From an uncultured Dehalococcoidia bacterium (lineage in GTDB: Bacteria; Chloroflexota; Dehalococcoidia; DSTF01; RBG-16-68-14), in the NCBI GenBank assembly GCA_964418365.1, contig CAYQLM010000003.1, positions 150 through 64,149 of the forward strand: 64,000 nt of DNA. Direction: 5' to 3'. The translations under genes and the position numbers were made by a program. Shown in pieces: positions 20,002 to 41,153 of this stretch; position 1 is the first letter of the stretch; the number at the start of each line of letters is the position of its first letter. The notes under the pieces were generated by a model. That model was not told where the DNA came from, ran no database searches, and saw only the letters and a list, made by a program, of their open reading frames with translations.

Positions 20002-20041
20002 GCGTCCAGCACGTGACGCAGCGCTACGGGGCAACGGGCTG

Positions 20042-23252: not shown

Positions 23253-23265
23253 CCTGAGACACAGC

Positions 23266-24738: not shown

Positions 24739-24842
24739 CCGAGCCGTAGTTTCTCAAGGACGCCGCGCGCCGTCCGGCGCATCAGCCTCACGTCCGTCAG
24801 TCCGGCTACGCTCTCGACGAACTTCGGGCTGCCCCGCGTGAG

Positions 24843-25784
24843 CTAACCGCTCGGCGCTTCGCGCAGCCAGCGGGGCAGATCTCGCTGTCCGTAGCGCCCG
24901 CGCAGCGCGTCGGCGGCGCCCGTCAGGCTGGCGACCGAGATGCGCCACTTCCCGCGCAGCAGCCAGCGCCGGCCGAGGACCAGCCCCAGTGTCATTCTCG
25001 GAGCGCGCCGCAACATCGTGAGCAGCCCGCCACGGCCTGACCAGCGCGCAAACAAGAGCCAGTTGCGCACGAAGTAGTACTGCCCTTGCGCGCTCGTCGT
25101 CAGCACTGACGCGCCGACGACATGCCAGATGTGTGGCCGGCACGCGTGGCCTACCTGCCAGCCGGCCCTCCGCGCGCGCGCGCAGAACTCGACGTCTTCC
25201 CAGTAGTGGAAGAAGCGTTCGTTTAGCAATCCGATCTCACGTACCATCGCAGCGTCGAGCAGCATGCTGCTGCCGGCAAGATCGTCCACCAAGTGGAACG
25301 GCTCCTGGCCGGACTCCTCTGGACAAGCGGTCACGCCTCGATACTCGCCGTGCCAGACGAACGCCGCCGGCTCCATGGACGCCTCGCCGTCCGCCGGCGG
25401 CCGCCAGACGGAGGGACCGACGATACCCAACCGTTCATGCGCGCGGGCGGCATCGACAAGCTGTGTCAGCGTGTCGGGCTCCACTTCCACGTCGTTGTTC
25501 AGCAGCCAGACGTAGGCCGGGTCATGCTCCAGCGCGGCCCTAATGCCGGCGTTGGCTCCGCCTGCGAAGCCGAGGTTCGCTCCCGTCTCGATGATGTTCA
25601 TCGCCGGTAACGCGGCGCGGATGCGTTCGACTGAGTCGTCGTGCGAACCGTTATCGACGGTGACCACCTGGTTGTCGGGATAGTCGAGCGCCTGCAACGA
25701 CTTCAGGCAGCGCACGGTGTGCTGCCACCCGTTCCAGTTCACAACAACGATATAGACGCGCGGCCGATCGCCCATTCGACGCAA
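24843..25784 (-). CDS. Family 2 glycosyltransferase (rhamnosyltransferase-like, WbbL-type)
   Basis: 313 aa. VYIVVVNWNGWQHTVRCLKSL...VVTVDNGSHDDS...ANLGFAGGANAGI...LLNNDVEV. Confidence 0.8.
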   Translation of the reverse strand: MRRMGDRPRVYIVVVNWNGWQHTVRCLKSLQALDYPDNQVVTVDNGSHDDSVERIRAALPAMNIIETGANLGFAGGANAGIRAALEHDPAYVWLLNNDVEVEPDTLTQLVDAARAHERLGIVGPSVWRPPADGEASMEPAAFVWHGEYRGVTACPEESGQEPFHLVDDLAGSSMLLDAAMVREIGLLNERFFHYWEDVEFCARARRAGWQVGHACRPHIWHVVGASVLTTSAQGQYYFVRNWLLFARWSGRGGLLTMLRRAPRMTLGLVLGRRWLLRGKWRISVASLTGAADALRGRYGQRDLPRWLREAPSG

Positions 25785-25801
25785 TCCTACAGCACGGCGA
25801 A

Positions 25802-27295
25802 TCAGTGGCGTCGCTCGAAGGTGAAGAGGCGGTCCCGTGGGTCGAGCATTGCCTCGACCTGCGCCGCGTTCCAGAATGGAGGCTCCTTCAGCGGCACGGA
25901 TCTGACCTCGACCTTGCCGTAGTACAGCTCGACGAGCCGGTCCAGTGGGGCATCGCTGAAGATGACGAGATTGTACGGTGTGTTGACGACGTAGAGCGTT
26001 CCGCCGGAGGGAAGCGTGGCGAATTGGTCGCGGAGGTCGGTGATGAACTGGTGGTTGGCGTCAGAGGCTTTGGAGATCGTGTTGTCTGGTGGAGGCGCAG
26101 TCTTGGAAGCGATGTCTTGGAGTTTCCACACCAGCAGCGCGCCCAGCACCACGGCAGCCAGGCCCACGTACGGAGGCATTGCGCGGGCCGGCGCGAAGAG
26201 CCGCCTCATGGAGGCTGTAGACGCAAGATCGACCAGGCGCATGGCCACCGCCGTCACGATCAACGCCAGCGGCAACCCGGGTAGGTATAGGAGTCGCCCA
26301 AACACCCCTAAGATCAGCGTCGAATCGGGGGCGAGTGCGCTGATGTACCAGACGACGGCAAAGGCGGCCAACGGCGACCAGCGCCACTGTGTGAGGAGAA
26401 ACGCGCAGAAGGTGAACATGACGGCCGAGACATAGGGCGCCGTACTATCGAGCGGGCTCACTGGATAAGCAGAAAGGCTGAAGTATGCGACATACTTGTC
26501 GTACATGTGCCAGCCGATCTGGAAGCCGAGGGAGAGGTGTGCATAGTGCCTGTGCACCCACTCCTGGATCGCAACATACGGAAGGAACACGAGCGCGACC
26601 GGGAGGAATGGGAGCCAGGACGTTGGCTGCAGCGCTTGGCGTGGCCCGCGATGCATGAGGAAATACCAGGCAACGAGTGCCACGACGAGCGGCACCGTTA
26701 CCGCGTGATATAACAAGGCGGCCGCAAATGCGGCGAGAAACGCACCGTAGTACCAGAAGCGGCGAGGTCCGCCGTCGGTGTACTTGATGAAGAGAAGGAA
26801 GGCGGCGAGATAGCAGAACACCGCCAGCGGTGTGTTGCCGTTGACCACCCAGCGCACCGCATCGCCATAGGCGAAATGAACGCCGAAGATGAGCGCGGCC
26901 AAGTGCGCGGCCCAGACACGTTGCGTCAGCCGCTGCGCCAGCATCCAAAACAGAGCAACGCAGCCGAGGTGCACGGCCAGATTGAACGCGTGATACGGCG
27001 CAGCGTGGAGCCCGAACAGCGAATACTCCGCGCGAAAAGTGATCACGTAGAGAGGCCGGTACTCGTTGAACTCAGGGGTGGGACGCGGATCGCGGTAATC
27101 GAAGACGTGGGCGAGCCAGGTATGCCAGGGGACGGTCTGCGCGCGGCGGAGGAATAGGAAGTCGTCCCCGAAGAACCAATCGTTCAAGGAGGGCGCATAG
27201 AGGACGAAGGTAAACAGCAGGATCGCGGCGAGACCTGCCGCGGGCGAAAGCAGCAGCTCCCAAGTGGTGGCGGGGAGCCGCGTTAATCGATTCAA
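25802..27295 (-). CDS. GT-C-fold polytopic membrane glycosyltransferase candidate
   Basis: ~498 aa from a TTG start near 27295 (start uncertain). The ORF-track 5' extension to 28063 overlaps the acyltransferase gene and is not coding. Loop-1 YAPSLNDWFFGDDFLFLRRAQ has a DD motif; ~12 TM helices. A TATTATACT -10-like element and GAAAGGAG lie just upstream. Confidence 0.5.
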   Translation of the reverse strand: MNRLTRLPATTWELLLSPAAGLAAILLFTFVLYAPSLNDWFFGDDFLFLRRAQTVPWHTWLAHVFDYRDPRPTPEFNEYRPLYVITFRAEYSLFGLHAAPYHAFNLAVHLGCVALFWMLAQRLTQRVWAAHLAALIFGVHFAYGDAVRWVVNGNTPLAVFCYLAAFLLFIKYTDGGPRRFWYYGAFLAAFAAALLYHAVTVPLVVALVAWYFLMHRGPRQALQPTSWLPFLPVALVFLPYVAIQEWVHRHYAHLSLGFQIGWHMYDKYVAYFSLSAYPVSPLDSTAPYVSAVMFTFCAFLLTQWRWSPLAAFAVVWYISALAPDSTLILGVFGRLLYLPGLPLALIVTAVAMRLVDLASTASMRRLFAPARAMPPYVGLAAVVLGALLVWKLQDIASKTAPPPDNTISKASDANHQFITDLRDQFATLPSGGTLYVVNTPYNLVIFSDAPLDRLVELYYGKVEVRSVPLKEPPFWNAAQVEAMLDPRDRLFTFERRH

Positions 27296-27378
27296 GGCAA
27301 GGGCTCGCGCCAGGGTGCTCGGTCTCCTTTCACTGGTAGCAAGTATAATAGGCGCGCGTCGTTGAGGGCGCTGGCGTC

Positions 27379-28653
27379 TCAAGCCGGCGTTACGGCAGCG
27401 CTGACCTCGCCTGGCAGCGGATGAGGCTCGGTGATGGGCTCGCGTCCGTACGGCACGTAGCGCTTCAGCTTGAGGACCTGCCTTTCGAAGAGATGCCAGC
27501 TCAACCATGCCGCCGCAATAGAAATGGCGCTGCAGATGACGCTGAAGGCAATGTTTTGAGGGATCTGCGAGCCGAATACGGTACGCGCACCATAGCTGCG
27601 CAGCACCTGGGAAGCGACTTCGAACGCGACCAGCAGGTGGAATACATAGATCGCGTATGAATAGCGGCCCATGAAGCTGAGCGTTGGGTGCGTGAAGATG
27701 CGATACAGCGTTGAGCCGGGCCGCGATGTTAGGGCGAGCAGAAGCACGGCGGCAAAGAGCAGCGCCAGCGCAGACAATCCGATCGTCTGGACGCGTCGAT
27801 CGATCGCCGAGAGGCCGTCTTGCGTGTAGAACAGTATCGCCAGCACCAGGAGCGAGCCTGCCGCGACGAGTTGGGCGTGCGGTCTGAAGCGGGCGATTTG
27901 GCCACCGCCGCGCAGCGCGAGTGCAAGCAGCGCGCCGAGCGCCAGCGTATCCACGCGCGCCGGCAGCAAATTGTACGGCCCGGCGATAGTGGCAAACGAT
28001 GCACCGATAGGCTGGAGGAGCATGATGCGAAAAGCGAGCGCCCCGGCGACGAGCGCGGCGCACAAGATCATCACGGCTCGCCGGTTGAAGAGGCGCAAGA
28101 GAAGCGGCCAGAGCAGGTAGAACTGCTCTTCGATGGCAAGCGACCAGAACTGGCTGTATACCAGAGGAATGTGCGAATGAAGCTGCTTCACCGCCGAGGC
28201 GATGTTCACCGTGTACGTCCAGTACCAGAACTGCGTGTGATGCAGCGCCGTGGTCTGCCCAGGCCCCGCCAGCCGGTGGAAGTTCGGCAACGCAAACAGC
28301 GCGAACGCGAGGAAGGCATAATAGAGCGGGAAGATGCGGAGGAAGCGGCGCGCGTAGAAGTTTCTGAAGTAGAAGTTCGAACGCTTCGCGTCGTAGAGGA
28401 TGCCCGTGATCAGGAAGCCGGAGAGCACGAAAAAGAGGTCGACGCCAGACCAGCCAACACCAAAGAGCTTCCGCGCGAAGCGATCGATGCCGAGCGTCGG
28501 GTCGCGGTCTACGAGGCCGAACCCGAGCCCCCAGAAGTGGTACTGCATCACGAGCAGAATCGCCAGGCCTCGCAGGCCATCAAGGGGGGCCAGCCGCTTG
28601 CCTTCGCGCTCGTCTGGTGGCGGCGATGCGGCTTGGGCCGTCACGTCGTTCAT
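27379..28653 (-). CDS. Acyltransferase family 3 membrane O-acyltransferase (OafA/YrhL-like)
   Basis: 424 aa. LDGLRGLAILLVMQYHF...VDLFFVLSGFLITGIL...RRFLRIFPLYYAF, 10 TM helices. Confidence 0.8.
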   Translation of the reverse strand: MNDVTAQAASPPPDEREGKRLAPLDGLRGLAILLVMQYHFWGLGFGLVDRDPTLGIDRFARKLFGVGWSGVDLFFVLSGFLITGILYDAKRSNFYFRNFYARRFLRIFPLYYAFLAFALFALPNFHRLAGPGQTTALHHTQFWYWTYTVNIASAVKQLHSHIPLVYSQFWSLAIEEQFYLLWPLLLRLFNRRAVMILCAALVAGALAFRIMLLQPIGASFATIAGPYNLLPARVDTLALGALLALALRGGGQIARFRPHAQLVAAGSLLVLAILFYTQDGLSAIDRRVQTIGLSALALLFAAVLLLALTSRPGSTLYRIFTHPTLSFMGRYSYAIYVFHLLVAFEVASQVLRSYGARTVFGSQIPQNIAFSVICSAISIAAAWLSWHLFERQVLKLKRYVPYGREPITEPHPLPGEVSAAVTPA

Positions 28654-28854
28654 GTCGTCAGCGTCTCAGCCGGTATCGACCAAAGCCTGTGGCCAAGCAC
28701 CACCTGCTCCCTTCGCGTTGGATAACGCAGGCACCGCGGCTTTGTAACAGCCTCCAAGGGGCCTGGTTTGAGTTCGCCGGCCGGGCGCACGGCAGTATAT
28801 GGACCGCTCCGCTGAGCCGTCAAGGCGAGGGCCTTGTCGGCACGACCGCTGCCG

Positions 28855-30219
28855 CTACAGGTATGTCGGGCCCTTCTGTCGAGTGGTCAACAGCTGCCAG
28901 AGCCGTCCCGCGCGGTAGCTGGCCAGGCGGTAGGCGATTGCCCAGCGCCGCTCTTGCCTTCCGGAGCGCGCGGGTGCCGGCGTGCGGCAGAACTCTACCA
29001 GCGGCTCCAGCACCTTTTCCCAGCGAAACTCCTCGCGCACTTCGCGCAAGTTTTGCTTGCAGGCCTGCACCAGCGCCTCGTCGTCCACGAGCCGCCGGAT
29101 CGCCTGTGCCAGCGCCTGCGTGTCCCGTGGCGGCACAGTGATGCCCAACCGCCGGCTCGACACGAGGCCAGCGAGGACATCGCCCTCGGTGCAGACGATA
29201 GGACACTCTGCCCAGAACAGATCGAGGAAGCGCGTCCGAAATGAGTAGTTGGTTTCCAGCCCTTCGAAGTAGGTGCAGACGCCGATGTCGGCCTCCAGCA
29301 GATAGCTTGCTGTGTCGTCGTAGCTGACCCAGTCGACGTTGAAGAAGACAAACCGGTCGAGGAGGTCGAGTTCCTCACACAGGCGCAGCGCATTCCTCAC
29401 GCCCACAGCGCCAGTGCCTTTGAGCTTGCCCGGCTGCGGATAGCTGGGCAACTCCGTCCCCATGAAGAACAGCTTGATGTCGTCGCGTTCCCAGCTGAGC
29501 TGGTGTACGGCGCGGATCAGCGTCTCCAGGTCATACCAGTCTGTGGGTGCGCCGTTCCAGATCAGTACCTTATCGTCCTGCTTGATGCCGGGATGGACGC
29601 CCTTCAGCACCCGCCGGGCCGCCTGCGGTTCGCCTGGGCGCACGCCCAACGGCACGAGCCCCAGTAGCTGGGTGAGCCGCTTGTCCCGCGCGTAGGCTTC
29701 CGGCGTCACCCGTCCGACGGCGGTGAGCATGCCCAGGTACAGGTGCCGCTGGCGTTCGTTTGCGTACAGGATGAAGTCCGCCCACGTCAGTAACAGGTTC
29801 AGCTTGCGTCGCTGGCAGTCCACCCACGCCTGCCGATGCGAAGCCTCCAGCTCTGTGTTCGCGATCTCCAGCCATTCAGGCACGTAGACACCATACAGAT
29901 CGAGGACCACGCGCGTGTTGCGGGTGTGCGGCAGCAGGCTGACCGGAAAGGTATAGGAGATCATGATGTCGTGCTGCTGGGCAAGCGTCTTCAGGGAGGA
30001 AGGCGTGTAGCGGACCACGCGAAATGGCAGGTCCTGCGTGAGGAGGTCGCTGTCATTGGGGAGGGCGAGCGTGACCGTGCCCTGGGGCAGGCGATCCGCC
30101 AGCACGCGGGCGATGTGATAGCTGCGAATGCCCAGGCTCGACATGCGCTGCCCGACAACGCCCAAGCTCAACACCAGGACATTTGCCGCTTGCTGCTCGC
30201 TCGAGGGTGGCGTGGCCAT
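28855..30219 (-). CDS. GT-B glycosyltransferase, paralog A of a three-member family
   Basis: Conserved with 34267..35658 and 35655..36977: RMSSLGIRSYHIARVLAD..VTLA, LIWNG..TDWYDLETLIRA, DIKLFFMGTE, YDDTASYLLEADIGVCTYFEGLETNYSFRTRFLDLFWAECPIVCTEGDV, AIRRLVDD. Start at MATPPS (ATG complement 30217-30219). Confidence 0.6.
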   Translation of the reverse strand: MATPPSSEQQAANVLVLSLGVVGQRMSSLGIRSYHIARVLADRLPQGTVTLALPNDSDLLTQDLPFRVVRYTPSSLKTLAQQHDIMISYTFPVSLLPHTRNTRVVLDLYGVYVPEWLEIANTELEASHRQAWVDCQRRKLNLLLTWADFILYANERQRHLYLGMLTAVGRVTPEAYARDKRLTQLLGLVPLGVRPGEPQAARRVLKGVHPGIKQDDKVLIWNGAPTDWYDLETLIRAVHQLSWERDDIKLFFMGTELPSYPQPGKLKGTGAVGVRNALRLCEELDLLDRFVFFNVDWVSYDDTASYLLEADIGVCTYFEGLETNYSFRTRFLDLFWAECPIVCTEGDVLAGLVSSRRLGITVPPRDTQALAQAIRRLVDDEALVQACKQNLREVREEFRWEKVLEPLVEFCRTPAPARSGRQERRWAIAYRLASYRAGRLWQLLTTRQKGPTYL

Positions 30220-30356
30220 GGAAGAACGCCGGATCCTAGCGATGGTGTCCGAGCGCGGCGGTGGGAGCGCCACCAACCATGGAAGCTGCGAGGCTCCAGC
30301 AGCGGCGCTGCATCACGAACAGAATCGCGGGGCGGCGCAGGCCATCATGGTGCTCC

Positions 30357-31133
30357 CTATCGGCGGTCATGTATCAACTCCGACGACGCCGTCTTCGATA
30401 GGGCCACAAGGAATCGATCATACGAGACGGGTGCGGGAAACCGCACCGCTTCGTACAGCGTCGCGGGATCATCCAGGAAGTCGGGGAATCGTACGACCGA
30501 ATGGGGAAGCCGGTGATCATGGATTGCCATCATGCAGAGACCCAGCCCGTAGATGAATGAGTTCTTCGCGGTGGATCTAGACCTGAATAAGAGATTGCCG
30601 GCCGCGAAATGGCTTTCCAGCATCGCGTCGAAATTTCTTACGCAGACGAGAACGTGATCGATCTGCGCTCCGGAAGCAGCCCAAACGCCGAGTGTCCAGC
30701 AGAAGGCCGGGTCTTTAACAACCTGGAAACGACGAGACATCTCCACCAATACCGCTCGGTGGGCCTCGACGACACCCTCGAAGCGTTCCCACGGCACAAG
30801 TTCTAATGGCTCCGCTCGTCGGCCCAAACAACGCAGAGCGACCCGTTCGATCGTATTGCTCAGCCACCAACTGAGCTTGCCGCGCGGCGGGTCGTCCGGA
30901 TCACTAAGCAGACGGCGCACCGCTTCATTCACCGTCCTGCTTGCAAGAATGCTCAGGCCCAGGTCGCGGATGACACGATGATTTTGCCGAAAGATGTCCG
31001 GAGCTTCATACCCAGCGTTTTTTTCGGAGACCAATGGCCTCCCGGATCGAACCCCAACTCGCGATAGAGTTGCGCCAGGAGCGACGTGCCGCTTCTTCCG
31101 GTTCCCGTGATTATTATCAAGCGTTCACCTCGG
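30357..31133 (-). pseudogene. Sulfotransferase (Stf0/PAPS-dependent type) interrupted by a single-base frameshift in a T7/A7 homopolymer
   Basis: Upstream frame from TTG ~31133 (GAGGTG RBS) encodes MIIITGTGRSGTSLLAQLYRELGFDPGGHW, the 5'-PSB P-loop of sulfotransferases. The frame breaks at ttttttt 31018-31024. The downstream frame (ORF 30357..31034) carries the 3'-PB-like VVKDPAFCWTLGVW. Combined length ~259 aa, the expected size. Confidence 0.55.
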
Positions 31134-31159
31134 ATATGGGCGTTGGACAGCTCCGACGC

Positions 31160-31789
31160 TCAGCCTTCCCGCCCGGCGATGGCCGGTTGCTCCTTGATCG
31201 CGCGCAGGATGAGCGCCGCTTCCTGGATACCGAGCAAGTGTCCCCAGAAGCGCTCGCAAAGGTATTGGGAGTTGCGGCCGTGGTTCGCCAGGACATGAAC
31301 AACTTGGTTCACAACACGCCGCAGGAAGGCAAACTCCGCAGCATTCTGAATGGAGAAGTTGAGCCGGGAATGCTCGATCCGGAACCTTGCTTTCGCATAG
31401 TAGGCGAAGGCTCTGCCATCGAAATACGTGTCATCGAAGTAAGCGAAAGTGGCGATGAACAGGCCACGTCGATGTGTGGGATCCTTCCATATATCATAGG
31501 ATGACGAGCCGTGAGGAACTTTGATGTACACAAGGGCGTTCGGGCGGCAGACGCGCCAGATCTCATCCATGAACGCCAGGAAATCATCCAGGTGCTCCAG
31601 CAGGTGGTACGCGTAAACCGCGTCGACCGAGTTATCCCGAAACGGCAGTCCGTAGTTGAAGTGAGCCAGCACATCGACGGCTGAAGCACATGCCATGTCA
31701 ACGCCAATCGACCCGGGGATCTTCTTCTGGCCGCAGCCCAAGTCAACCTTTACCGCTGCACGGGCACAAAGACCCGGCCGCGTCTTCAT
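31160..31789 (-). CDS. Class I SAM-dependent methyltransferase
   Basis: 209 aa. VDLGCGQKKIPGSIGVDM, LPFRDNSVDAVYAYHLLEHL, ALVYIKVPH. GAGGAGG RBS. Noticeably lower GC than its surroundings. Confidence 0.75.
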   Translation of the reverse strand: MKTRPGLCARAAVKVDLGCGQKKIPGSIGVDMACASAVDVLAHFNYGLPFRDNSVDAVYAYHLLEHLDDFLAFMDEIWRVCRPNALVYIKVPHGSSSYDIWKDPTHRRGLFIATFAYFDDTYFDGRAFAYYAKARFRIEHSRLNFSIQNAAEFAFLRRVVNQVVHVLANHGRNSQYLCERFWGHLLGIQEAALILRAIKEQPAIAGREG

Positions 31790-32671
31790 CTACCCTATGC
31801 CTCCTCGACCGCTGCCGGTCGACACTTCTTCAGGCGGTGGTGCCCCGCCAGCCTGCCGCCAGGCGGCGATCGCTCGCTGGAGCGCGTGCCGGGCTGCCGG
31901 CGAACGCTCTGCCAACCTCGTGAGGTATTCGTTCACCACCGCTCTGGGTTCGCCGACCGTGACAATTCGGCCCTGGTCCAGTAGCGCGACCCGGTCCGAA
32001 AAGCGTTCGATATTTGCTACGTCGTGCGACACGAGCACGATCGTTATGCCCTGTTGCTTGAGCGACTCGAAATGTTCATAGCACTTCTCCTGGAAGTCCG
32101 CGTCGCCCACCGCGAGCACCTCATCGACGATGAAGATGTCCGGCCGGACATGAACGGCCACCGAGAAGGAGAGCCGAAGGGTCATCCCCCAGGAGTAGGT
32201 GCGCATCGGCCGATCGGCGAACGCTTCCAGCTCGGCGAAGCGGATGATCTCCGGGATCTTATCCCGGATGTCTTGCTTGGAGAGGCCCATGAGCAGACCG
32301 TTGATATAGGCGTTCTCGCGCCCCGTCGCGCGCGGGTGGAAGCCGGCACCAAGATCCAAAAGCGACGCAATGCGGCCGTTCGCGGTCACGGTACCATTCG
32401 TCGGCTCCGACAGTCCAGCCATGATGCGCAGCAGCGTGCTTTTTCCCGACCCGTTCTGGCCGATGAGGCCGAGAAACTCGCCCCGCCGCACCGATAAGCT
32501 GACGTCGTGCAGCGCCCAGAACGGCTCGCCGAACAGCACTTCCTTCACGAATGAAAACGGGTGCAAGAATGCCTCGCTCGCGCGCCAGGGATGCAGCTGC
32601 GTTACAAAGAACCGCTTTGAGACGTTCTCGACGGACAGCGCCAAGTCTTGGTCAGAGCGCATCTGCGACAT
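31790..32671 (-). CDS. wzt: ABC transporter ATP-binding protein, polysaccharide export type (Wzt/TagH/KpsT-like)
   Basis: 293 aa. Walker A GQNGSGKSTLL; signature YSWGMTLRLSFS; Walker B IFIVDEVLAVGD. No C-terminal carbohydrate-binding extension. Confidence 0.85.
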   Translation of the reverse strand: MSQMRSDQDLALSVENVSKRFFVTQLHPWRASEAFLHPFSFVKEVLFGEPFWALHDVSLSVRRGEFLGLIGQNGSGKSTLLRIMAGLSEPTNGTVTANGRIASLLDLGAGFHPRATGRENAYINGLLMGLSKQDIRDKIPEIIRFAELEAFADRPMRTYSWGMTLRLSFSVAVHVRPDIFIVDEVLAVGDADFQEKCYEHFESLKQQGITIVLVSHDVANIERFSDRVALLDQGRIVTVGEPRAVVNEYLTRLAERSPAARHALQRAIAAWRQAGGAPPPEEVSTGSGRGGIG

Positions 32672-33446
32672 GTTTTTCCAGGGTCCTGAAGATCGCCGTG
32701 CCGATGATGAGAAAAAGGATCATCGCGCCGAACGTCGACCAGATTTCGTGACCGGGAAACGCTCCATCCAGCAGCACGCTACGCCAGCCAACCATCAGTC
32801 CCGTGAGCGGGTTAATCAGCAGGATGGGCCTGATGCTTGGAGGTACGCGCCCGAGCGGGAAGATCACGGCCGAGGCATAGAACAGGATGTTGAGGCTCAC
32901 GTCCACTAGCGGAGAAATGTCACGGAAGAAGACGTTCAGCGGCGAGAGCATCAGGCCGATGCCGACGGTCAGTCCGAACTGCAGCAGAATGAGGAATGGA
33001 ATGCCGAGAAGCCACATCGGCTTCGGCCCTTCGCCTCCGACGAAGAGGAAGATGAGCAGTACGGGCAAGATGAGTGTGAATTGCGCGGCATTCCCGAACG
33101 CCGCGGAGAGCGGCAAGATGGCGCGCGGGAAGATCACCTTCTTCACGAGCGATCCGTACGTCACCAGGACGTTTGACGACTCAGTGACGGCAGATGTGAA
33201 CCAGAACCAGGGAAAGAGCCCCGTCATGATGAACAGAGGATAATGTGGAACATCGATCGTCAGCACTTTGCGAAACGCGAACCAGAGCAGTAGCCCCAAG
33301 GCCAGGGGGCGCGCGACCCACCAAACATAGCCCAGTACCGTCCCCCGATAGCGTAGGATGAGCTCACGCGTGGTGAGAGCGAACAGCAGATCCCACGCAC
33401 GTCCCCAGTTGGCGGTACGAGAAGCTGATCCGGCGTCGAGACCCAT
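32652..33446 (-). CDS. wzm: ABC-2 type polysaccharide exporter permease (Wzm-like)
   Basis: Start at MGLDAGS (ATG complement 33444-33446) with an AAGGAG RBS. 6 TM helices; LFALTTRELILRYRGTVLGYVWW is the ABC-2 signature region. Overlaps wzt by 20 nt. Confidence 0.8.
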   Translation of the reverse strand: MGLDAGSASRTANWGRAWDLLFALTTRELILRYRGTVLGYVWWVARPLALGLLLWFAFRKVLTIDVPHYPLFIMTGLFPWFWFTSAVTESSNVLVTYGSLVKKVIFPRAILPLSAAFGNAAQFTLILPVLLIFLFVGGEGPKPMWLLGIPFLILLQFGLTVGIGLMLSPLNVFFRDISPLVDVSLNILFYASAVIFPLGRVPPSIRPILLINPLTGLMVGWRSVLLDGAFPGHEIWSTFGAMILFLIIGTAIFRTLEKHVADAL

Positions 33447-33457
33447 CCCACCGCTCC

Positions 33458-34270
33458 TTACGCGCGCGCCCGCCAGGTGGTGATCAGGAAATCGCTGGCG
33501 CCGGGCATTCGGCGAGCAAGGGCATCGAAACGGCGCAAGATCAGCCGTGCGACACGTCCCGGCATCAGGCTGAGCAGCGTGCCCCAGCCGGGGAACGCCC
33601 ATAACAACGAAACGCCGTAGACGGCTTCCAGGTCGAGACAAGGCTGGCCCATCTTCTTCAGCCTCCCCAGTGTCGTTTCAAAGGTGTGCTCATGCGGGAC
33701 GGGCGTATCCCAAAACTTGTTCTTGCCGGGCTGGATTATTCCCACGCGACGTCCGATGCGATATAGCACCCTACTGCCGCGGCACGAGATGCCGCCGTAG
33801 TTCACCAGGCCGATGATGGCCAGACCGCCTGGCTTCAAGATGCGCGCGATCTCCTGCATGCCCTTCTCCGGGTTCGCGAAATGGTCGAGCGAAGACTGAC
33901 AGAGCACGCGGTCAAAACTGTGATCGCGGAAGGGTACCACTTCGCCGATCGCCTTGAAGAGCTCAAGGCGCATGCCCACCCCCATCGCCCTCGTCTGCGC
34001 CTTCGAGATCATTGCGGGCGATGGCTCCAGCGCGAGCACGTCCCAGCCATGGTCGTGCAACGCGGGGGCGTGCAGGGCGGAGCCACAGGCGAGATCCAGC
34101 ACACGTCCTGGTGTGCCAGCCACCGCCTTCTCTTGGAACGCGTCTTCCATACGCACCAGGATGAAACTGTTGTCCGGCCCGCGCGGCCAGTTCTCCCAGA
34201 GGGGCTCCGGCGCCCAGTCGAGATCGACGTTGCCGAGGGTTGCCGAGGGTGCGTGTGGCTCGTTTGTCAC
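33458..34270 (-). CDS. Class I SAM-dependent methyltransferase (Methyltransf_11-like)
   Basis: 270 aa. VLDLACGSALHAPALHDHGWDVLALEPS, FDRVLCQSSLDHF, LKPGGLAIIG. Confidence 0.75.
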   Translation of the reverse strand: MTNEPHAPSATLGNVDLDWAPEPLWENWPRGPDNSFILVRMEDAFQEKAVAGTPGRVLDLACGSALHAPALHDHGWDVLALEPSPAMISKAQTRAMGVGMRLELFKAIGEVVPFRDHSFDRVLCQSSLDHFANPEKGMQEIARILKPGGLAIIGLVNYGGISCRGSRVLYRIGRRVGIIQPGKNKFWDTPVPHEHTFETTLGRLKKMGQPCLDLEAVYGVSLLWAFPGWGTLLSLMPGRVARLILRRFDALARRMPGASDFLITTWRARA

Positions 34271-35658
34271 GGCTGAGTTGCTCCTTCTGGCGCGGCAGGC
34301 CGCGCCCTGGGGTAACGCATGTTATCCCAACGCCGGTAGAAGGCAAGACGTAACTTGGACTCGAGGCTCGAGGCCAACGTCGTCGTCAGGGGCAGGAGGC
34401 GGCTCCACTTCTGAGCCGGCTCGGCAGACTCGCGACAGTACTCCACCAGTCCTTCCAGGACGCGCTCCCAGCGATATGCTTCCTTCTCCTTCCGCAGGTT
34501 CTCCTTGCACTGCACCACGAGGGCGCTGTCATCGGCCAGCCGAAGGATGGCTTCCGCCAGCGCGCCTTCGTTACGCTCTGGCACAGCGATTCCCAGCGGC
34601 CGGCGGGCGACCAGCTCGGCCCACACGTCGCCCTGGGTACAGACGATGGGGAGCTCCGTCCACAGCAAATCGAGGAGGCGAGAACGGAAGGAGAAATGCG
34701 TCTCAAGATTGTCGAAGTACGTGCAGATGCCAATGTCCGCCTCGCATAAGTAATTCACGGTGTCCTCGTATTCGATCCAGTCGAAGTTGAAAAAGACGAA
34801 CTTGTCCAGCAGGTCCAGCTCGCGGCAGAGCTGGTACGCGCTTCGCTGAGTACCGCCACCAAGGCCATGCAGCTTGGGAGCGTCGGTGTCTGGGTTATCC
34901 GGGTGTTCCGTGCCGAGGAAGAAGAGTTTAATGTCATGTCGCTGTTCGCTGATGCGATGGATGGCGTGGATCAGCGTCTCCACGTCGTACCATTCAATGA
35001 TGCCGCCGTTCCAAATGAGCAGCGTGTCCGTGGGCAGGATGCCGGGCCATACGCCTTTCAGCACACGACGCGTTGGCCTGGGCTCGTTGGGCCGGACGCC
35101 GAACGGCGCGAGTACGAGCAGCTTGGCGAGCCAGTGGTCGTCGTCGTACGTCTCAGGAGTCACCCGGCCGAGGGCGCTCAGCATGCCGAAATAGAGATCG
35201 CGCTGCCGCAGCGTGGCGCAAAGGATGCTGTCTGCCAGGAGCAGTTGCACCATCAGGTCGCGCGACAAGGAGTTGAAGAATGTGGTTTTGCGGGAGTCGT
35301 CGATACCGAAGAACTTCGCAACTTCAATCCATTCCGTAACGTACGGCGTGAACATGTCCAGCACCAGCCGCTTGCTCTGAAGCAGTGGAAGCAGGAAGAG
35401 CGGGAAGCGACTGCCGATCACAATGTCGCTCTTGCGCGTGGCCGCGGTCAACGCGCCGCGAGTGTACGGGACCGCGCGGAAGGGAACATCGGCCGCGATC
35501 TCGTCAGGCGAAGGCGTCGCCAGCGTCACTTGGGCGCCGGGCACGTTCTCGGCCAGCACGCGGGCGATGTGATAGGCGCGGATGCCCGGGCTGGCCATCC
35601 GGCGGCCGGTGCGGTTCTTGGTCGTGACGAGGATGCGTGGCCCTCCGTTCACGATCAT
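34267..35658 (-). CDS. GT-B glycosyltransferase, paralog B
   Basis: 463 aa. RMASPGIRAYHIARVLAENVPGAQVTLA ... YEDTVNYLCEADIGICTYFDNLETHFSFRSRLLDLLWTELPIVCTQGDV ... AILRLADD. ATGA overlap with the neighbouring genes. Confidence 0.6.
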   Translation of the reverse strand: MIVNGGPRILVTTKNRTGRRMASPGIRAYHIARVLAENVPGAQVTLATPSPDEIAADVPFRAVPYTRGALTAATRKSDIVIGSRFPLFLLPLLQSKRLVLDMFTPYVTEWIEVAKFFGIDDSRKTTFFNSLSRDLMVQLLLADSILCATLRQRDLYFGMLSALGRVTPETYDDDHWLAKLLVLAPFGVRPNEPRPTRRVLKGVWPGILPTDTLLIWNGGIIEWYDVETLIHAIHRISEQRHDIKLFFLGTEHPDNPDTDAPKLHGLGGGTQRSAYQLCRELDLLDKFVFFNFDWIEYEDTVNYLCEADIGICTYFDNLETHFSFRSRLLDLLWTELPIVCTQGDVWAELVARRPLGIAVPERNEGALAEAILRLADDSALVVQCKENLRKEKEAYRWERVLEGLVEYCRESAEPAQKWSRLLPLTTTLASSLESKLRLAFYRRWDNMRYPRARPAAPEGATQP

Positions 35659-36977
35659 ATCCTCAGCAGGAGTGACCTGAGCGTACGGATCCGCCGGGTG
35701 ATCTCATGGCCCGCGATGCGCGAGATGAGCGGCCCAACCCGTTCGCCCTTGGGCTTTGCGATCGACTCGCCGTCGTTGCAGAACTTGATCAGCGGCTCGA
35801 GCGCGACCTCCCAGGTCATGCAATGCTTGATGGCGTGGATATTGCGCTTGCACTCCTCGTAGAACTCGCGGTCGTCCAGGAGCCTCCGGATAGCGCCAGC
35901 CAGGCCAGGAACGTCGCGTTCCTTGACCGTCAGGCCGAGGCGGTGCTCTTCTACCGATTCGGCTAGCACGTCGCCCTTCGTGCAGATGAGGGGTACCTCT
36001 GCCCAGAAGACGTCCAGAAAGCGCGTTCGCAGGGAGAAGTTCGTCTCAAGCCCCTCGAAGTAGGTACAGACGCTGAGGTCCGCTTCCAGCGTGTAGTTCT
36101 TCATCTCTTCGTATGGGACCCAGCCGACATCGAAGAAGACACTGCGATTGTATAGCCCGAGTTCCCGTGATAGCGCTACCGCCTCCTGAAAGCGGCCGCC
36201 CAGCCCCAGGTTGTGCAGCCCGGGGTAGGACGCCCCCAGGAACAGGAGCTTCAGGTCGTCACGCTCGCGCGACAGCTTGGCGAGCGCGCTGATGAGCGTG
36301 GCTGGGTCATACCAACCAAGGATGCCGCCGTTCCACAGGATCAACTTGTCCGTCTCCTTGATCCCGGCGTACTGTCCCTTCACTACATGTTTCGTATGCT
36401 CCAGTGGATCGGGACGCACGCCGTGCGGCGCGACGCCGATGAGCTTGCGCAGCGATGGGTCCTTCGTGTGGCTGCGCGGGGTCACCAACCCGAGGCTTAC
36501 CATCGAGCCTAGGTGTGCATCGCGCTGCCGTTCGCTGGCCGCGAGCACGAAGTCGGCGAAGGTCAGCTGAATGTTGAGCAACTTTCGCGACTGCGAGAGC
36601 CAGGCGCCGCGGCGCAGCCGCGTGAAGCCCGGATCGTCCTTGGACGCCTCCGTCCATTCCAGGAGGTACTGCGTAAAAAAGTCCAGTACGAAGGTCTTCC
36701 AGGGAAAGAAGAAGAGCGCGTACGAGGGGAAGCCGGTGGCGATGATGATGTCGTGGGTAGCGATCTCGCGGATCACGGTCAGCTTGGTGTAGTAAACGAG
36801 ACGGCAGGGCGCGTTCTCGATCTTTCCTTGCGCGCTATCCGAGGCAACGGCGAGGGTGACGGACGCGCCGGGCACCTGTTCGGCGAGGACGCGCGCCATG
36901 TGATGAGCGCGGATGCCCGGGCTGGACATCCGCTCACCGTAGGCTGCTCCCGCGAGGATGAGGATTCGCTTCCCCAT
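35655..36977 (-). CDS. GT-B glycosyltransferase, paralog C
   Basis: 440 aa. RMSSPGIRAHHMARVLAEQVPGASVTLA ... YEEMKNYTLEADLSVCTYFEGLETNFSLRTRFLDVFWAEVPLICTKGDV ... AIRRLLDD. Confidence 0.6.
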   Translation of the reverse strand: MGKRILILAGAAYGERMSSPGIRAHHMARVLAEQVPGASVTLAVASDSAQGKIENAPCRLVYYTKLTVIREIATHDIIIATGFPSYALFFFPWKTFVLDFFTQYLLEWTEASKDDPGFTRLRRGAWLSQSRKLLNIQLTFADFVLAASERQRDAHLGSMVSLGLVTPRSHTKDPSLRKLIGVAPHGVRPDPLEHTKHVVKGQYAGIKETDKLILWNGGILGWYDPATLISALAKLSRERDDLKLLFLGASYPGLHNLGLGGRFQEAVALSRELGLYNRSVFFDVGWVPYEEMKNYTLEADLSVCTYFEGLETNFSLRTRFLDVFWAEVPLICTKGDVLAESVEEHRLGLTVKERDVPGLAGAIRRLLDDREFYEECKRNIHAIKHCMTWEVALEPLIKFCNDGESIAKPKGERVGPLISRIAGHEITRRIRTLRSLLLRI

Positions 36978-36991
36978 AACAGACTATTAGG

Positions 36992-37456
36992 CTACTTGAC
37001 GGCCACGGACCAGTCGACCCCGGACTCCGCCGGCGTCATGCGCTCTTCATCAGGGTTCTTCTCGTCGTACTTAGACGTGATGTAGTACATCAGCACGGCT
37101 TCCTCGTCACCCAGGACCATGTAGCCGTGCCAGACGCCCGGCGGGATACTGAGCACGCGGCGATCGTTCTCCCCAAGATAGACCCATTTCACCTGCTTGT
37201 GCTCGTCCATCAGGCCCACTTTGAGATAGCCCTTAATCACGAACCAGTGGTCGGTCTGCTTCTGGTGCCGGTGCCACGCGACGACGCGTCCCGGATAGGC
37301 CCAGGTGATGTTGACGTCGCCGCCCATGTCCACGCTACCGTCCCCGGTGAAGCCGAAGACGTCGCAGGCGCGACGGGCGCGGTCATCATCGAAGAGCCGC
37401 GGCACGGAGACGCGGGCGTCAGCGACAGAGTTCCTGGCCTTCGCATCAGTGGTCAT
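36992..37456 (-). CDS. RmlC-like cupin (dTDP-4-dehydrorhamnose 3,5-epimerase-related, short form)
   Basis: 154 aa. WHRHQKQTDHWFVIKGYLKVGLMDEH...LSIPPGVWHGYMVLGDEEAVLMYYITSKYDEKNPDEER parallels the RmlC core (LRGLHyQ..KLVRv.G...DV..D........IP.G.aHGF..L). Confidence 0.6.
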   Translation of the reverse strand: MTTDAKARNSVADARVSVPRLFDDDRARRACDVFGFTGDGSVDMGGDVNITWAYPGRVVAWHRHQKQTDHWFVIKGYLKVGLMDEHKQVKWVYLGENDRRVLSIPPGVWHGYMVLGDEEAVLMYYITSKYDEKNPDEERMTPAESGVDWSVAVK

Positions 37457-37469
37457 GATCTACCTCCCC

Positions 37470-38363
37470 TTACTGTTCGTTCGGTTGCAGCTCGCCCCTT
37501 CTATGCAAGTAATCGGCCAATGCCTCCGGCCAGTCGCGCAGCAGCGGCACGCCGGCTTCCCGCAGCGCCGCGTTCTCAAGCACCGAGTATAGGGGCCTGC
37601 GCGCTTTCGCGCCGAACTCCGCTGTCGTCGTCGGTCTGAGCGAGGCGTTTGTGCCGGTAAGCGAGAAGATCTTGGCGCTGAACTCATACCACGAACAGGA
37701 GCCACCGTTCGTCACGTGGTACGTGCCGTATCGACGCGTGTCCGCGACCGCGAGGAGCTGCTGGGCAAGGTCGTACGTGAACGTCGGCGAGAGCACCTGG
37801 TCGTCCACGACGCGCAGGTCTTTGCCGCTGCGGCCCAGCTCGAGCATGCGCTGGACGAAGTTGCCGCCCTTCCCGCCCGATCCGGCCTCGCCGTATAGGC
37901 CCGACGTGCGCACGATGTAGTGCTTCTCGATTCTGGAGCGCACGAGCTGCTCCCCGGCGACTTTGCTTGCACCGTAGACATTGACGGGTGACGGCGCGTC
38001 CCGCTCGCTGTACGCGCGGCCAAGGTCGCCGGCGAAAACGTAGTCGGTGCTGATGAACATGAGCGCCGCCCCGATCTCGCTGCAGGCATCGGCAAGATTC
38101 ATCGCGCCGACGGCGTTCACCTGGAACGCGCGCTCCGGCTCGCTCTCGCAGAGATCGACATTGTGAAACGCCGCTGTGCTCACGACAAGCTCCGGGCTCT
38201 GGTCGCGAAGCGTGGCCAAGAGGCCATCGCGGTCGGTGATCTCAATCGCGTCGCGCGCGAGTCCGATCGTGTCGCCGTGCGGCCAGCGGCGCATGATGTC
38301 GCTGCCGAGCTGTCCTGCCGCGCCAATCACGACGGTACGCCTGCTCACGATTCGTTCGTCCAA
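37470..38363 (-). CDS. rmlD: dTDP-4-dehydrorhamnose reductase (RmlD-like)
   Basis: 297 aa. VVIGAAGQLGSDI, STDYVFAG, VNVYGASKVAGEQ (YxxxK), HVTNGGSCSWYEF. Typical RmlD length. Confidence 0.8.
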   Translation of the reverse strand: MDERIVSRRTVVIGAAGQLGSDIMRRWPHGDTIGLARDAIEITDRDGLLATLRDQSPELVVSTAAFHNVDLCESEPERAFQVNAVGAMNLADACSEIGAALMFISTDYVFAGDLGRAYSERDAPSPVNVYGASKVAGEQLVRSRIEKHYIVRTSGLYGEAGSGGKGGNFVQRMLELGRSGKDLRVVDDQVLSPTFTYDLAQQLLAVADTRRYGTYHVTNGGSCSWYEFSAKIFSLTGTNASLRPTTTAEFGAKARRPLYSVLENAALREAGVPLLRDWPEALADYLHRRGELQPNEQ

Positions 38364-39028
38364 ACGCGGCGTTCCGGCGCCGGCTCATCCGCCTTCTCGA
38401 TGACGCGCGCCGGCACGCCGACCGCGGTCGTCCATGCCGGAACTTCAGAGAGTACAACAGCGTTCGCGCCGATCTTAGCCCCACAGCCAACGCGTACTGG
38501 ACCGAGGATGCGCGCGCCGGTGCCAACGAACACGCCCTCTTCAAGGTGCGGGCCGATATACTCGCCTTGCACGAGACCAATGGAAATCGACGGGCACAGG
38601 ACACAGCCCTTACTGATGAACGTAATGCCATCGATCACCATCTCGCCGTGCGGAATGTACACGCCTTCCTTGATCACAACAGGGTTCCCGATCCGGATCC
38701 CCCAACCGATGGCGCAAACATAGTTCAGCAGCGACGGGATCACAGGGACGCGCCATGTGCGCAGGAGCACTCGCAGCCGGTATAACGCTAGCGCGAAATA
38801 CTCCGACGCGAAGAGCGGCAACCGCAGCGCGTAGAGCGCACGTCCCAGCTTCGTTCGGCACTTGTCCATCTCGCCGCGATGGTACGCGAACACGATCGCG
38901 TCGCGGGCGAGGGCGTGGAAGAGTGATGGGCGTTGGGACTCCAGGTTCTTCGCAAATTGCCGAAGCTGCTCCTCAGGCCGTGGTCGCGTCCCGCTCCAGA
39001 CTGTCCCGGGTCGCTCGAGGTCCGTCAT
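38345..39028 (-). CDS. Left-handed beta-helix (hexapeptide) acetyltransferase, serine-acetyltransferase-like; probable sugar O/N-acetyltransferase
   Basis: 227 aa. SATase-like N-terminal helices (YALRLPLFASEYFALALYRL), then hexapeptide repeats (IGWGIRIGNPVVIKEG..., IGANAVVLSEVPAWTTAVGVPARVI). Confidence 0.65.
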   Translation of the reverse strand: MTDLERPGTVWSGTRPRPEEQLRQFAKNLESQRPSLFHALARDAIVFAYHRGEMDKCRTKLGRALYALRLPLFASEYFALALYRLRVLLRTWRVPVIPSLLNYVCAIGWGIRIGNPVVIKEGVYIPHGEMVIDGITFISKGCVLCPSISIGLVQGEYIGPHLEEGVFVGTGARILGPVRVGCGAKIGANAVVLSEVPAWTTAVGVPARVIEKADEPAPERRVWTNES

Positions 39029-39036
39029 GCCCCGGG

Positions 39037-40065
39037 CTAGAAGACGCTGGGAAACTTGGCAAGGTAGGGATGGAGCTCATCGAGGAGTGTCATCCACGCG
39101 ATGTTGTAGTAGCGCGGGTGGTTAAAATCGATGCAGCCATTCTTCTCGATGCCGAGCAGCATCTCTTCGACTGACTCCAGAATGGTCACGCCCGGCGTAA
39201 ATCCGATCGCTTGGCGCAGCTTCGAGTTGTCGCACTTATAGTCACGCACGAGCTTCGGCAGCGGTGCGTCCTTCAGCTTCGGACGGTACTTGCGCATCTG
39301 CGCAGAGCCTGCTACCAGCATCGCCAGACCGCGGATCTGGAAGTTGTCGTGCACGACGTTAAAGGTCTGCGCGTGCACCTTCTCGCGCGGCGCCTCCAGC
39401 ACCGCAATGTGCGCGCGGGCGACGTCCTTCACGTCAACGAGCGGACGCCACATCCAGCCGCCGCCGTGGAGCTGCAGCTCGCCGTTTTGCACCGCCGCCC
39501 GGACGAACGTGTTCACGACGAGGTCGAAGCGCATGCGCGGGCTGGCGCCGTACACCGTGCCCTGACGCAGCAGGATCGGGCTGAAGTCGTCACTGGCGTG
39601 CTCCAGCAGCGCGATCTCACCCTCGTACTTCGATGTCGCGTATGCGCCGCGCGGCTGGACGTCGGCGGTCTCGTCGTAGACCGGGCCAGGCGGCAGGCCG
39701 TCGTAAATCGAGCAGCTGGAGCCGTAGGACAATCGCTCAACGCCCACCCGTTTGCAGGCCTCCGCCAGCGCTCGGGTCGCCACGGCGTTCATCTGGTGGT
39801 TCGCTTCCGGGTTCATCTCCGCCGTCGGGTCGTTGGAGAGGCCGGCGAGATGGATCACCGCGTCGGCGCCTTCCAGCACGTCATCGCACAGGCTGCGCAC
39901 GTCCTGCTGGACGAGTTCGATCTGGTCGAGCACAGGCGCGAGCGGTTTCTCGCCCCAGTAGAGCCGGTCGACGACGCGCACGTGCCAGTCCTGGTCGACC
40001 AGCATGCGCACCAGCACGGAGCCGATGTAGCCCGCGCCGCCCGTCACGACGACTGTCCTGCTCAC
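39037..40065 (-). CDS. NAD-dependent sugar-nucleotide epimerase/dehydratase (extended SDR)
   Basis: 343 aa from GTG (complement 40063-40065). VVVTGGAGYIGSVLV, catalytic YATSKYEGE. The ORF-track 5' extension (to 40569) has no protein-like content. First gene of the minus glycan operon. Confidence 0.8.
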   Translation of the reverse strand: MSRTVVVTGGAGYIGSVLVRMLVDQDWHVRVVDRLYWGEKPLAPVLDQIELVQQDVRSLCDDVLEGADAVIHLAGLSNDPTAEMNPEANHQMNAVATRALAEACKRVGVERLSYGSSCSIYDGLPPGPVYDETADVQPRGAYATSKYEGEIALLEHASDDFSPILLRQGTVYGASPRMRFDLVVNTFVRAAVQNGELQLHGGGWMWRPLVDVKDVARAHIAVLEAPREKVHAQTFNVVHDNFQIRGLAMLVAGSAQMRKYRPKLKDAPLPKLVRDYKCDNSKLRQAIGFTPGVTILESVEEMLLGIEKNGCIDFNHPRYYNIAWMTLLDELHPYLAKFPSVF

Positions 40066-40297
40066 AACCTGTCCGTCTCCCTGAGCCTGCAGGGCCCTGA
40101 TACGAAATAAGCCTCTGGCGGCAGCGACCGGCCTGCTCGCTTTACCCAGAGGTGGCGGGGTGGAGCAAGTATAACGTACATACTCTGTCAAGTAAACGCG
40201 CAGCCGATCGCCCCTATTACTGCGCCGCTTTGGCGAACGCCGAACGCCTCGGATAGACTGGAGCACCCCTAAGCGAGCAAAGGTCCGGGAGGCTCCC

Positions 40298-41068: not shown

Positions 41069-41153
41069 CGTTGATCTGCTACCATCCCGAGAAATAGCCC
41101 GGCTGCGGCCGCGTTGGTATACTTGAGCACCTTTCGCCCGGGGGAGTGCGCAA

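Follow-up and report, generated by a model that had tools for sequence, protein, structure and literature searches.

A 64,000-nucleotide stretch of DNA from an uncultured Dehalococcoidia bacterium (Chloroflexota; contig CAYQLM010000003.1), referred to here as the window, encodes three paralogous glycosyltransferases, designated GTa, GTb and GTc, in an operon that also encodes a Wzm/Wzt-type ATP-binding cassette (ABC) exporter. Judged from profile comparison and structural modeling, the three enzymes represent a divergent, uncharacterized GT4-type subfamily. On balance, it is probable that these cytoplasmic GT-B enzymes, together with a GT2 glycosyltransferase of the same operon, build a lipid-linked glycan that contains rhamnose and is methylated and acylated, and that Wzm/Wzt exports it.

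Three paralogous enzymes of a divergent GT4-type family

The three genes are located on the minus strand. GTc (440 aa; 35655..36977) opens the array as the type 1 member of this GT4-like family and overlaps by 4 bp with GTb (463 aa; 34267..35658), a type 2 member. A second type 2 copy, GTa (454 aa; 28855..30219), occupies a variable cassette slot, and the same 454-residue product is predicted by an independent public gene call. All three are full length and free of frameshifts, with a GC content at third codon positions (GC3) of 0.80-0.83, as in the adjoining genes. When the copies are aligned, GTb is 51% and GTc 43% identical to GTa over ~440 residues, 133 columns are invariant, and identity is lower among the N-domains (39-47%) than among the C-domains (48-61%). 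The consensus holds the blocks RMSSPGIRAYHIARVLAE, WNGG..WYD, D.KLFF.GTE, CTYFEGLETNFS.RTRFLD..WAE.P..CT.GDV and AIRRL.DD, and comparison of GTa with GTc by BLASTP gives an expect value (E) of 6e-123. The three copies are paralogs by true homology. An earlier annotation made from the letters of the window (the sequence-only reading) had proposed three such paralogs, and the minus-strand open reading frames (ORFs) at these coordinates, with their 43-51% identity and every block that it quoted, agree with it; the prospect that the blocks are generic low-complexity sequence falls away, the similarity being far above chance. It also placed the paralogs on either side of Wzm/Wzt and two S-adenosylmethionine (SAM)-dependent methyltransferases. 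The Pfam and NCBIfam matches of the intervening genes bear this out, although a 225-residue orphan ORF (30357..31034) had been overlooked.

Profile matches of the three copies to Pfam exceed the cut-offs of both PF00534 (Glycos_transf_1; 34.3, 34.7 and, for GTc, 46.1 bits against 26.4) and PF13692 (Glyco_trans_1_4; 40.9, 38.2 and, for GTc, 36.8 bits against 27). These matches are confined to the C-terminal half of each protein; the N-terminal half of all three corresponds to no Pfam family, and in NCBIfam nothing comes near any cut-off. Among the textbook GT4 genes of the same window, those beginning at 13401, 14661 and 20830 match Glyco_transf_4 on the N-domain, and that at 21981 matches only C-domain families. 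Comparison by hhalign of the family profile with an alignment of eight textbook GT4 sequences gave a probability of 97.5% (E 4.9e-12; 358 columns, query residues 20-428), a relationship that is convincing only with the eight-sequence alignment, as a single textbook GT4 of the window gave only 15.6% over 73 columns. Searches of the PDB with profiles of 3 and 63 sequences returned sucrose-phosphate synthase 6kih as the sole match (E 2.8e-4), limited to the C-terminal region, and yielded no functional lead.

An AlphaFold2 model of GTb, built from the 63-sequence alignment, folds with high confidence (predicted local distance difference test 91.6; predicted template modeling score 0.91) into two Rossmann-like domains, with a helical insertion at residues 106-141 and a helical tail at the C-terminus. 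Foldseek found 535 matches to this model in the PDB at E<=1e-3, led by GT4 enzymes, and the top 50 are almost all retaining GT-B enzymes, again with GT4 first. The leaders comprise sucrose-phosphate synthase (6kih; 9e-15), BshA (6d9t), MshA (3c48), ManT (7qsg), GlgM, WaaG (2iv7) and PimA (2gej), at E values of 1e-15 to 1e-11, target-normalized TM-scores of 0.55-0.76 and identities of 10-17%. The sequence-only reading had called these proteins GT-B glycosyltransferases and looked to structure prediction for confirmation, which is now provided by the Pfam scores, the two modeled Rossmann-like domains with solved GT4 enzymes as their nearest PDB neighbors, and the hhalign result. As a prediction from profiles and model, the GT-B/GT4-type assignment of the three copies is solid, and retaining chemistry would be expected from the fold.

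An altered donor site

Within this conventional fold, the region that corresponds to the GT4 donor site is atypical. Both hhalign and HMMER pair the Lys of the canonical G-R-x4-K-G motif with Tyr224 and its Arg with Gly219, and the surrounding segment W216-N-G-G-x3-W-Y-D225 is free of Lys and Arg in all three copies. In place of E-x7-E stands [D/E]316-x2-E319-x5-R325-x-R327-x2-D330, which includes an insertion of 4-6 residues bearing the invariant E319, R325 and R327; the second Glu of E-x7-E aligns with Asp330, so that the second acidic position is kept. The poor match to textbook GT4 signatures noted in the sequence-only reading is therefore real, comprising the lack of an N-domain Pfam family, of the Arg/Lys pair and of E-x7-E. 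Its expectation of a donor-binding E-x7-E equivalent survives in part, as the altered motif with Asp330 in second position, and fails for the canonical motif. Compared with the solved GT4 enzymes (6kih, 6d9t, 3c48, 7qsg, 2iv7 and 2gej), the three copies share the two-Rossmann-domain GT-B fold and this second acidic position, but they lack the Arg/Lys pair and carry the 4-6 residue insertion, the helical insertion at 106-141 and the C-terminal helical tail.

Across 158 family domains, 26 residues are conserved at >=90%: R27, D101, E109, D143, Q152, G158, G187, D211, W216, G218, W223, D225, F247, P253, F290, W294, E319, R325, R327, D330, W333, P337, G343, D344, G356 and W397. As all 26 are present in GTa, GTb and GTc, the three copies look catalytically competent, with none appearing decayed.

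Distribution, arrays and fusions

A word-indexed search retrieved 272 relatives, labeled only "glycosyltransferase", and 1,431 clusters (50% identity) reached E<=1e-30 in an exhaustive hidden Markov model search that covered 1.84 billion representatives. When one genome per species was scanned, 19 related loci emerged, 18 of which belong to Chloroflexota metagenome-assembled genomes (Dehalococcoidia, Anaerolineaceae, Chloroflexia and Thermoflexaceae); the locus outside that count, L014, is assigned to UCB2. All relatives that could be placed taxonomically are Chloroflexota, with one fusion cluster including Dormibacteraeota as well. Against plasmids, tblastn found only two Bacillus megaplasmid "hypothetical proteins" of 23% identity in another context. 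One of these, on the Bacillus cereus plasmid NZ_CP106676.1 (11965..13209), is a distant homolog over 84% of GTb, and its neighbors encode a sugar-phosphate nucleotidyltransferase, a Cof-type HAD phosphatase, a phosphotransferase, two ABC exporter ATPases and a large methyltransferase, a setting that suggests a pathway for small-molecule glycosides and not a polysaccharide locus.

Members of the family stand in tandem, 1-5 to an array, and 18 of the 19 related loci have two or more. A neighbor-joining tree of 49 copies reveals an old split into two types, both of which are retained in 18/19 loci. Type 1, the ortholog of GTc, heads the array in all 19 and usually occurs once per locus. Type 2 comprises the later copies, including GTb and GTa, and has undergone lineage-specific duplications; GTa is sister to a clade of GTb and its counterparts in L001 and L006. 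A single column cleanly separates the types, namely position 252 in the YPG loop following the second C-domain strand, which is Tyr in type 1 (GTc included) and His in type 2. The most frequent partners in the 19 loci are a methyltransferase of the type encoded at 31160 (13 loci), RmlD (12), GT2 (11) and Wzm together with Wzt (10), counts with which a clustering of ORFs from 20 sources (the 19 loci and the window) closely agrees. A short-chain dehydrogenase/reductase (SDR) epimerase is conserved in nine.

The slot occupied by GTa is variable. The two closest loci, L006 and L001, lack an ortholog of GTa and have other genes in its place; in the interval of L006 between the small methyltransferase and the acyltransferase, a 459-residue methyltransferase-like protein and a radical-SAM protein are encoded where the window has GTa and the orphan ORF. 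Radical-SAM/SPASM-like proteins of ~425-446 residues and methyltransferase-like proteins of ~460 residues lie within the glycan cluster at L006 6246..8996 and L001 8396..9736, and also in L008, L010 and L013. The segment of the window at 30001..34000, which covers the exporter and methyltransferase genes, has a GC content of 0.605 against 0.62-0.70 in the rest of the window, which fits a variable or exchanged cassette within the operon.

Fusions of the family domain to other modules are common. Of the 149 best family representatives, 47 are longer than 700 residues, and a Pfam scan of nine long ones identified the arrangements GT2+family, methyltransferase+family+further GT1-like domain, family+family, and family+GT2+WsaF_N/WsaF_C. 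The last is P0174, a protein of 1,483 residues from Chloroflexota and Dormibacteraeota that is named "O-antigen biosynthesis protein" in some sources. In 27/149 representatives, the family domain is joined to a GT2 domain homologous to the operon GT2 (29-35% identity), which links that GT2 and the family as a functional unit. These multi-module fusions match the design of polymerases in ABC-transporter-dependent pathways. Together with the conserved arrays of 1-5 copies, the fusions to GT2, methyltransferase and WsaF-like modules provide an indirect basis on which the "repeating-unit polymerase set" of the sequence-only reading is plausible.

The operon and its exporter

All genes of the operon are encoded on the minus strand. 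From 40077 down to 31160 they are tightly packed, with gaps of -20 to +14 bp and two 4-bp overlaps, and gaps of 125-201 bp separate GTa and the orphan ORF. Cupin, RmlD, acetyltransferase and SDR genes lie upstream of the array on the same strand, with genes for an acyltransferase, a polytopic membrane protein and a GT2 downstream. Scans for promoters and terminators gave results at or below chance.

Between GTb and GTa, a SAM-dependent methyltransferase of 270 residues (33458..34270; Methyltransf_11, E 3.4e-22) overlaps GTb by 4 bp and has orthologs in L001 and L004. It is followed by the exporter, composed of a Wzm-type ABC-2 permease (264 aa; 32652..33446, with the start codon taken from the public gene call) and a Wzt-type ATPase (293 aa; 31790..32671), whose genes overlap by 20 bp. 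The permease matches PF01061 (ABC2_membrane) above its cut-off, at 39.7 bits, and has weak KpsM/Wzm matches in NCBIfam. The ATPase likewise matches PF00005 (ABC_tran) above cut-off (E 2e-21), and its best NCBIfam matches are the TagH and Wzt/RfbE export ATPases over residues 48-253. With these two genes adjoining in the same operon as cytoplasmic glycosyltransferases, the arrangement is that of an ABC-transporter glycan pathway. Past the ATPase domain, the Wzt tail consists of only ~40 low-complexity residues and has no C-terminal carbohydrate-binding domain, so that the locus resembles the type of Wzt that lacks one, unlike the Escherichia coli O9a type with its recognized chain-terminating modification. 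Next is a small methyltransferase (209 aa; 31160..31789; Methyltransf_11, E 1.4e-10), the most conserved partner of the array, an ortholog of which occurs in 12/19 related loci and in many of them directly adjoins the type 1 gene.

The orphan ORF, which is called as a gene in the public assembly, has a GC content of 0.57 and a GC3 of 0.65, below its neighbors. It matched no Pfam (to E<=5) or NCBIfam family and has no homolog in the 19 related loci. By eye only, its VKDP...VRN resembles the 3'-phosphate-binding region of sulfotransferases, with no P-loop. Sulfotransferase-like genes are present in L001, L007, L010 and L012.

Upstream of GTc, a short RmlC-like cupin (154 aa; 36992..37456) scores 29.5 bits against dTDP_sugar_isom, barely over the Pfam cut-off, and falls below the NCBIfam cut-offs for rmlC (26.4 vs 155.75) and the WbuC cupin (32.6 vs 42). 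It is conserved beside RmlD in L001 and L006 at 79-94% identity and may be a minimal or non-canonical 3,5-epimerase. RmlD itself, a dTDP-4-dehydrorhamnose reductase (37470..38363), scores 301 bits in TIGR01214 against an equivalog cut-off of 224. Together with the permease and ATPase matches, this bears out the ABC-exporter glycan locus of the sequence-only reading, here with RmlD. Beyond RmlD are encoded a hexapeptide-repeat O-acetyltransferase (227 aa; 38345..39028; Hexapep, with EpsC/CysE-like matches below cut-off) and an NAD-dependent SDR-type sugar epimerase/dehydratase (~346 aa; 39037..40077; PF01370, E 5.5e-43, GalE-like below cut-off).

At the other end of the operon, a membrane acyltransferase of the Acyl_transf_3 family (27379..28653; PF01757, E 1.8e-27) has paralogous copies in L003 and L006. 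The neighboring polytopic membrane protein (25802..27295) is a probable GT-C glycosyltransferase. Its start codon is likely TTG at 27295 or 27382, as the mechanically called ORF, which extends to 28063, overlaps the acyltransferase gene. It has no Pfam match of its own, even at E<=5, and only 18 homologs among 5.8 billion proteins, several of them named "ArnT-like glycosyltransferase" by the Joint Genome Institute and the distant ones bearing PMT_2 and TPR domains. From these relatives, it is probably a rare GT-C-like enzyme acting after export. The GT2 glycosyltransferase (313 aa; 24843..25784; PF00535, E 1.5e-18) has a weak TIGR01556 "rhamnosyltransferase" match (66.6 vs 200) and is the presumed catalytic partner of the family.

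Comparison with characterized systems

The sequence-only reading compared the locus with the WsaC/D/E/F rhamnosyltransferases of S-layer glycan clusters, without naming which Wsa protein the three copies resemble. The analogy holds for the system as a whole and breaks down for the proteins, which match neither WsaF_N nor WsaF_C and have no PHPSYPPLE sequence. WsaC, WsaD and the glycosyltransferase domains of WsaE are GT2 enzymes. In the account of the pathway cited here, WsaF alone among the Wsa enzymes is described as GT4/GT-B, and PHPSYPPLE is the proline-rich signature proposed for its rhamnose recognition (PMC3898925). Membership of the WsaF family was rejected, as PF21374 (WsaF_N) and PF22772 (WsaF_C) remained unmatched at E<=1 in all three copies and the proline motif was absent; the same Pfam library detected both domains in the third module of P0174. 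The region equivalent to PHPSYPPLE reads F[D/E][G/N]LETxxSxRxRxLD in the three copies, with no prolines.

At the level of the pathway, the S-layer glycan of Geobacillus stearothermophilus NRS 2004/3a (WsaC-F, Wzm/Wzt, WsaB) involves several cytoplasmic glycosyltransferases acting on a lipid-linked glycan, as proposed here (PMC3898925). Terminal methylation, dTDP-rhamnose genes, ABC export and a later extracellular transfer are further features that it has in common with the pathway predicted for the window (PMC3898925). WsaF, too, is a GT-B enzyme of GT4 whose EX7E region is non-canonical (PMC3898925), and P0174 is fused to a WsaF-type module. Unlike the copies of the window, the Geobacillus enzymes are not mutual paralogs, and methylation is carried out there by a domain of the WsaE-like protein, whereas the methyltransferases of the window are separate genes. 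The three copies also lack the R249/K302 pair of WsaF, which lies outside the top 50 structural neighbors of the GTb model.

In the streptococcal rhamnose polysaccharide clusters (gacA-L/sccA-G), GacC is a GT2 enzyme, GacD/E constitute the exporter and the GT-C enzyme GacL adds side chains after export. These clusters share with the window a GT4-type enzyme (GacB), further glycosyltransferases (GacC, GacF and GacG) and ABC export, as well as the placement of rmlD (gacA) inside the glycan cluster with rmlABC elsewhere (PMC6802508). GacB differs in having a DUF1972 N-domain and in being a single priming enzyme with no tandem paralog array, its likeness to the three copies being one of description only, and the cluster differs in that methyltransferases are absent from it (PMC6802508).

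The common polysaccharide antigen (CPA) locus of Pseudomonas aeruginosa (WbpX/Y/Z, Wzm/Wzt and PA5455-PA5459) provides a third comparison, as three glycosyltransferase genes adjoin wzm/wzt (PMC3560663). This polymer, which contains 3-O-methyl sugars, requires an acetyltransferase as well as two small, separate methyltransferases (PMC3560663). Unlike the rhamnose proposed for the window, that of CPA is D-rhamnose, derived from GDP-D-Rha, and the polymer is ligated to lipid A-core in a diderm; WbpX/Y/Z are compared here by description only (PMC3560663).

Proposed pathway and alternative explanations

In the proposed pathway, GTc, GTb and GTa would be membrane-associated on the cytoplasmic side and would work alongside the operon GT2, each adding one defined sugar linkage to a polyprenyl-diphosphate-linked glycan at the inner membrane face. 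The more conserved C-domain would bind the nucleotide sugar, and the more divergent N-domain would select the acceptor and hence the linkage. This division fits the rule for GT-B enzymes that donors bind to the C-domain and acceptors to the N-domain (PMC3898925, PMC6802508). The type 1 copy, GTc, might make a linkage common to all relatives, with the type 2 copies GTb and GTa making lineage-specific ones. The glycan would contain L-rhamnose, a proposal based on RmlD, which of all sugar-nucleotide genes accompanies the arrays most consistently, with an RmlC-like gene also in the operon. The two methyltransferases would methylate this glycan, which would also be O-acetylated or acylated. Wzm/Wzt would carry it across the membrane and, as Wzt lacks a carbohydrate-binding domain, would probably do so without a terminal cap having to be recognized; outside, the GT-C enzyme may decorate or transfer it. 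We infer a lipid-linked acceptor, and a polymerizing rather than single-addition role. For at least one of the copies, the favored candidate as donor is dTDP-beta-L-rhamnose, a tentative assignment that stands somewhat short of even odds.

Several observations weigh against this pathway. Neither the Arg/Lys pair that stabilizes the diphosphate nor E-x7-E at its canonical site is found in any of the three copies, and with the donor site thus atypical, the donor type and mechanism of GT4 enzymes are not safely transferable. The rhamnose signature of WsaF is absent from the copies, and the GT2 could be the sole user of dTDP-rhamnose. No more than about half of the related loci encode Wzm/Wzt within 10 kb, and one has a Wzx-like flippase instead, so that members of the family need not be coupled to an ABC exporter. 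Pfam scans of the large window ORFs revealed no RmlA, RmlB or initiating phosphoglycosyltransferase of the WecA/WbaP type; the last may be encoded elsewhere in the genome. The literature search found no paper on the family or on Chloroflexota rhamnose glycan loci, and no biochemically characterized member.

The strongest competing explanation concerns the donor. The paralogs could be hexosyl- or N-acetylhexosaminyltransferases that use housekeeping UDP- or GDP-sugars, leaving all rhamnose to the GT2, and we regard this as a serious contender, if one with rather less than an even chance. The nearest structures all use UDP- or GDP-hexoses, the conserved GalE-like SDR suggests a second sugar, and the weak rhamnosyltransferase match belongs to the GT2, with both the rhamnose motif (PMC3898925) and the Pfam domains of WsaF missing from the three copies. 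However, their donor pocket is unlike that of the hexose-using GT4 enzymes, no sugar-nucleotide gene is linked to the arrays as consistently as RmlD, and one family member is fused to a WsaF-type module. Retaining GT4 rhamnosyltransferases are also known in WsaF and GacB (PMC3898925, PMC6802508).

A different objection concerns the product. Non-processive transferases that each add a single residue could build a short, non-repeating oligosaccharide, such as a linker, adaptor, cap or protein-linked glycan, in place of a polymer repeat. A copy number that ranges from 1 to 5 among relatives would be expected if each copy added one residue to a variable oligosaccharide, and the lack of a carbohydrate-binding domain in Wzt, the PMT/ArnT-related GT-C enzyme in the operon and the related loci with no Wzm/Wzt nearby all suit such a product. 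The multi-module fusions of 800-1,480 residues (GT2+family, family+family and family+GT2+WsaF-like) nevertheless resemble known polymerases of ABC pathways, and Wzm/Wzt systems typically export long polymers (PMC3560663); the single-addition explanation is accordingly considered unlikely. That only one copy is active, the others being redundant, decaying or non-catalytic scaffold paralogs, is very improbable. It would suit GTa, which sits in a variable, lower-GC slot with wider intergenic gaps and has no ortholog in the closest relatives, but every family-invariant residue is kept in all three copies, none is truncated or frameshifted, their GC3 is like that of their neighbors, and the old division into types 1 and 2 has been maintained in nearly all related loci (18/19).

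The proposed pathway can also be extended in a more ambitious direction, which is doubtful and ranks slightly below the single-addition explanation. The three copies would then represent a distinct GT-B family deserving its own CAZy-level family or subfamily, with a rewired donor site in which the Arg/Lys pair has been lost and an invariant E-x5-R-x-R-x2-D loop acts with R27 and Q152 of the N-domain instead, a donor and catalytic arrangement possibly unseen in GT4. Such a family would be the main modular polymerase unit of Chloroflexota surface glycans, and the type 1/type 2 pair an obligate two-enzyme polymerase.

The wider window

Most of the window (~900..43600) is one very large glycan-biosynthesis island. 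Besides the operon described above, it holds GT-C proteins with Pfam support at 919, 15626 and 18103, in addition to the one inferred at 25802, the textbook GT4 genes at 13401, 14661, 20830 and 21981, four GT2 genes, five methyltransferases, a Wzx-like flippase (23266..24738) and a UDP-glucose dehydrogenase-family gene (10772..12058). Flanking the glycan operon on the plus strand, 41154..43604 encodes an 816-residue multi-pass membrane protein with a weak central spermidine-synthase-like domain (Pfam E 0.007; NCBIfam E 1.8e-4). Farther on, a 1,230-residue protein with Sortilin/Vps10 and BNR/Asp-box repeats (46020..49712, minus strand) is followed by a tannase-like gene (50078..52099) and a beta-propeller gene (52406..53755), and these may form a block of secreted proteins.

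Significance

As a system, the locus is of a familiar kind, in which Wzm/Wzt is accompanied by several glycosyltransferases and methyltransferases; the enzyme family itself is uncharacterized. Hardly any work has been done on the cell-envelope glycans of the Chloroflexota, an abundant phylum whose members are mostly uncultured. Within this phylum, the family appears to be a core building enzyme of surface polysaccharides. Characterizing one type 1/type 2 pair would assign a function to thousands of proteins, and would also reveal a GT4-type chemistry that operates without the canonical Arg/Lys pair and EX7E motif.

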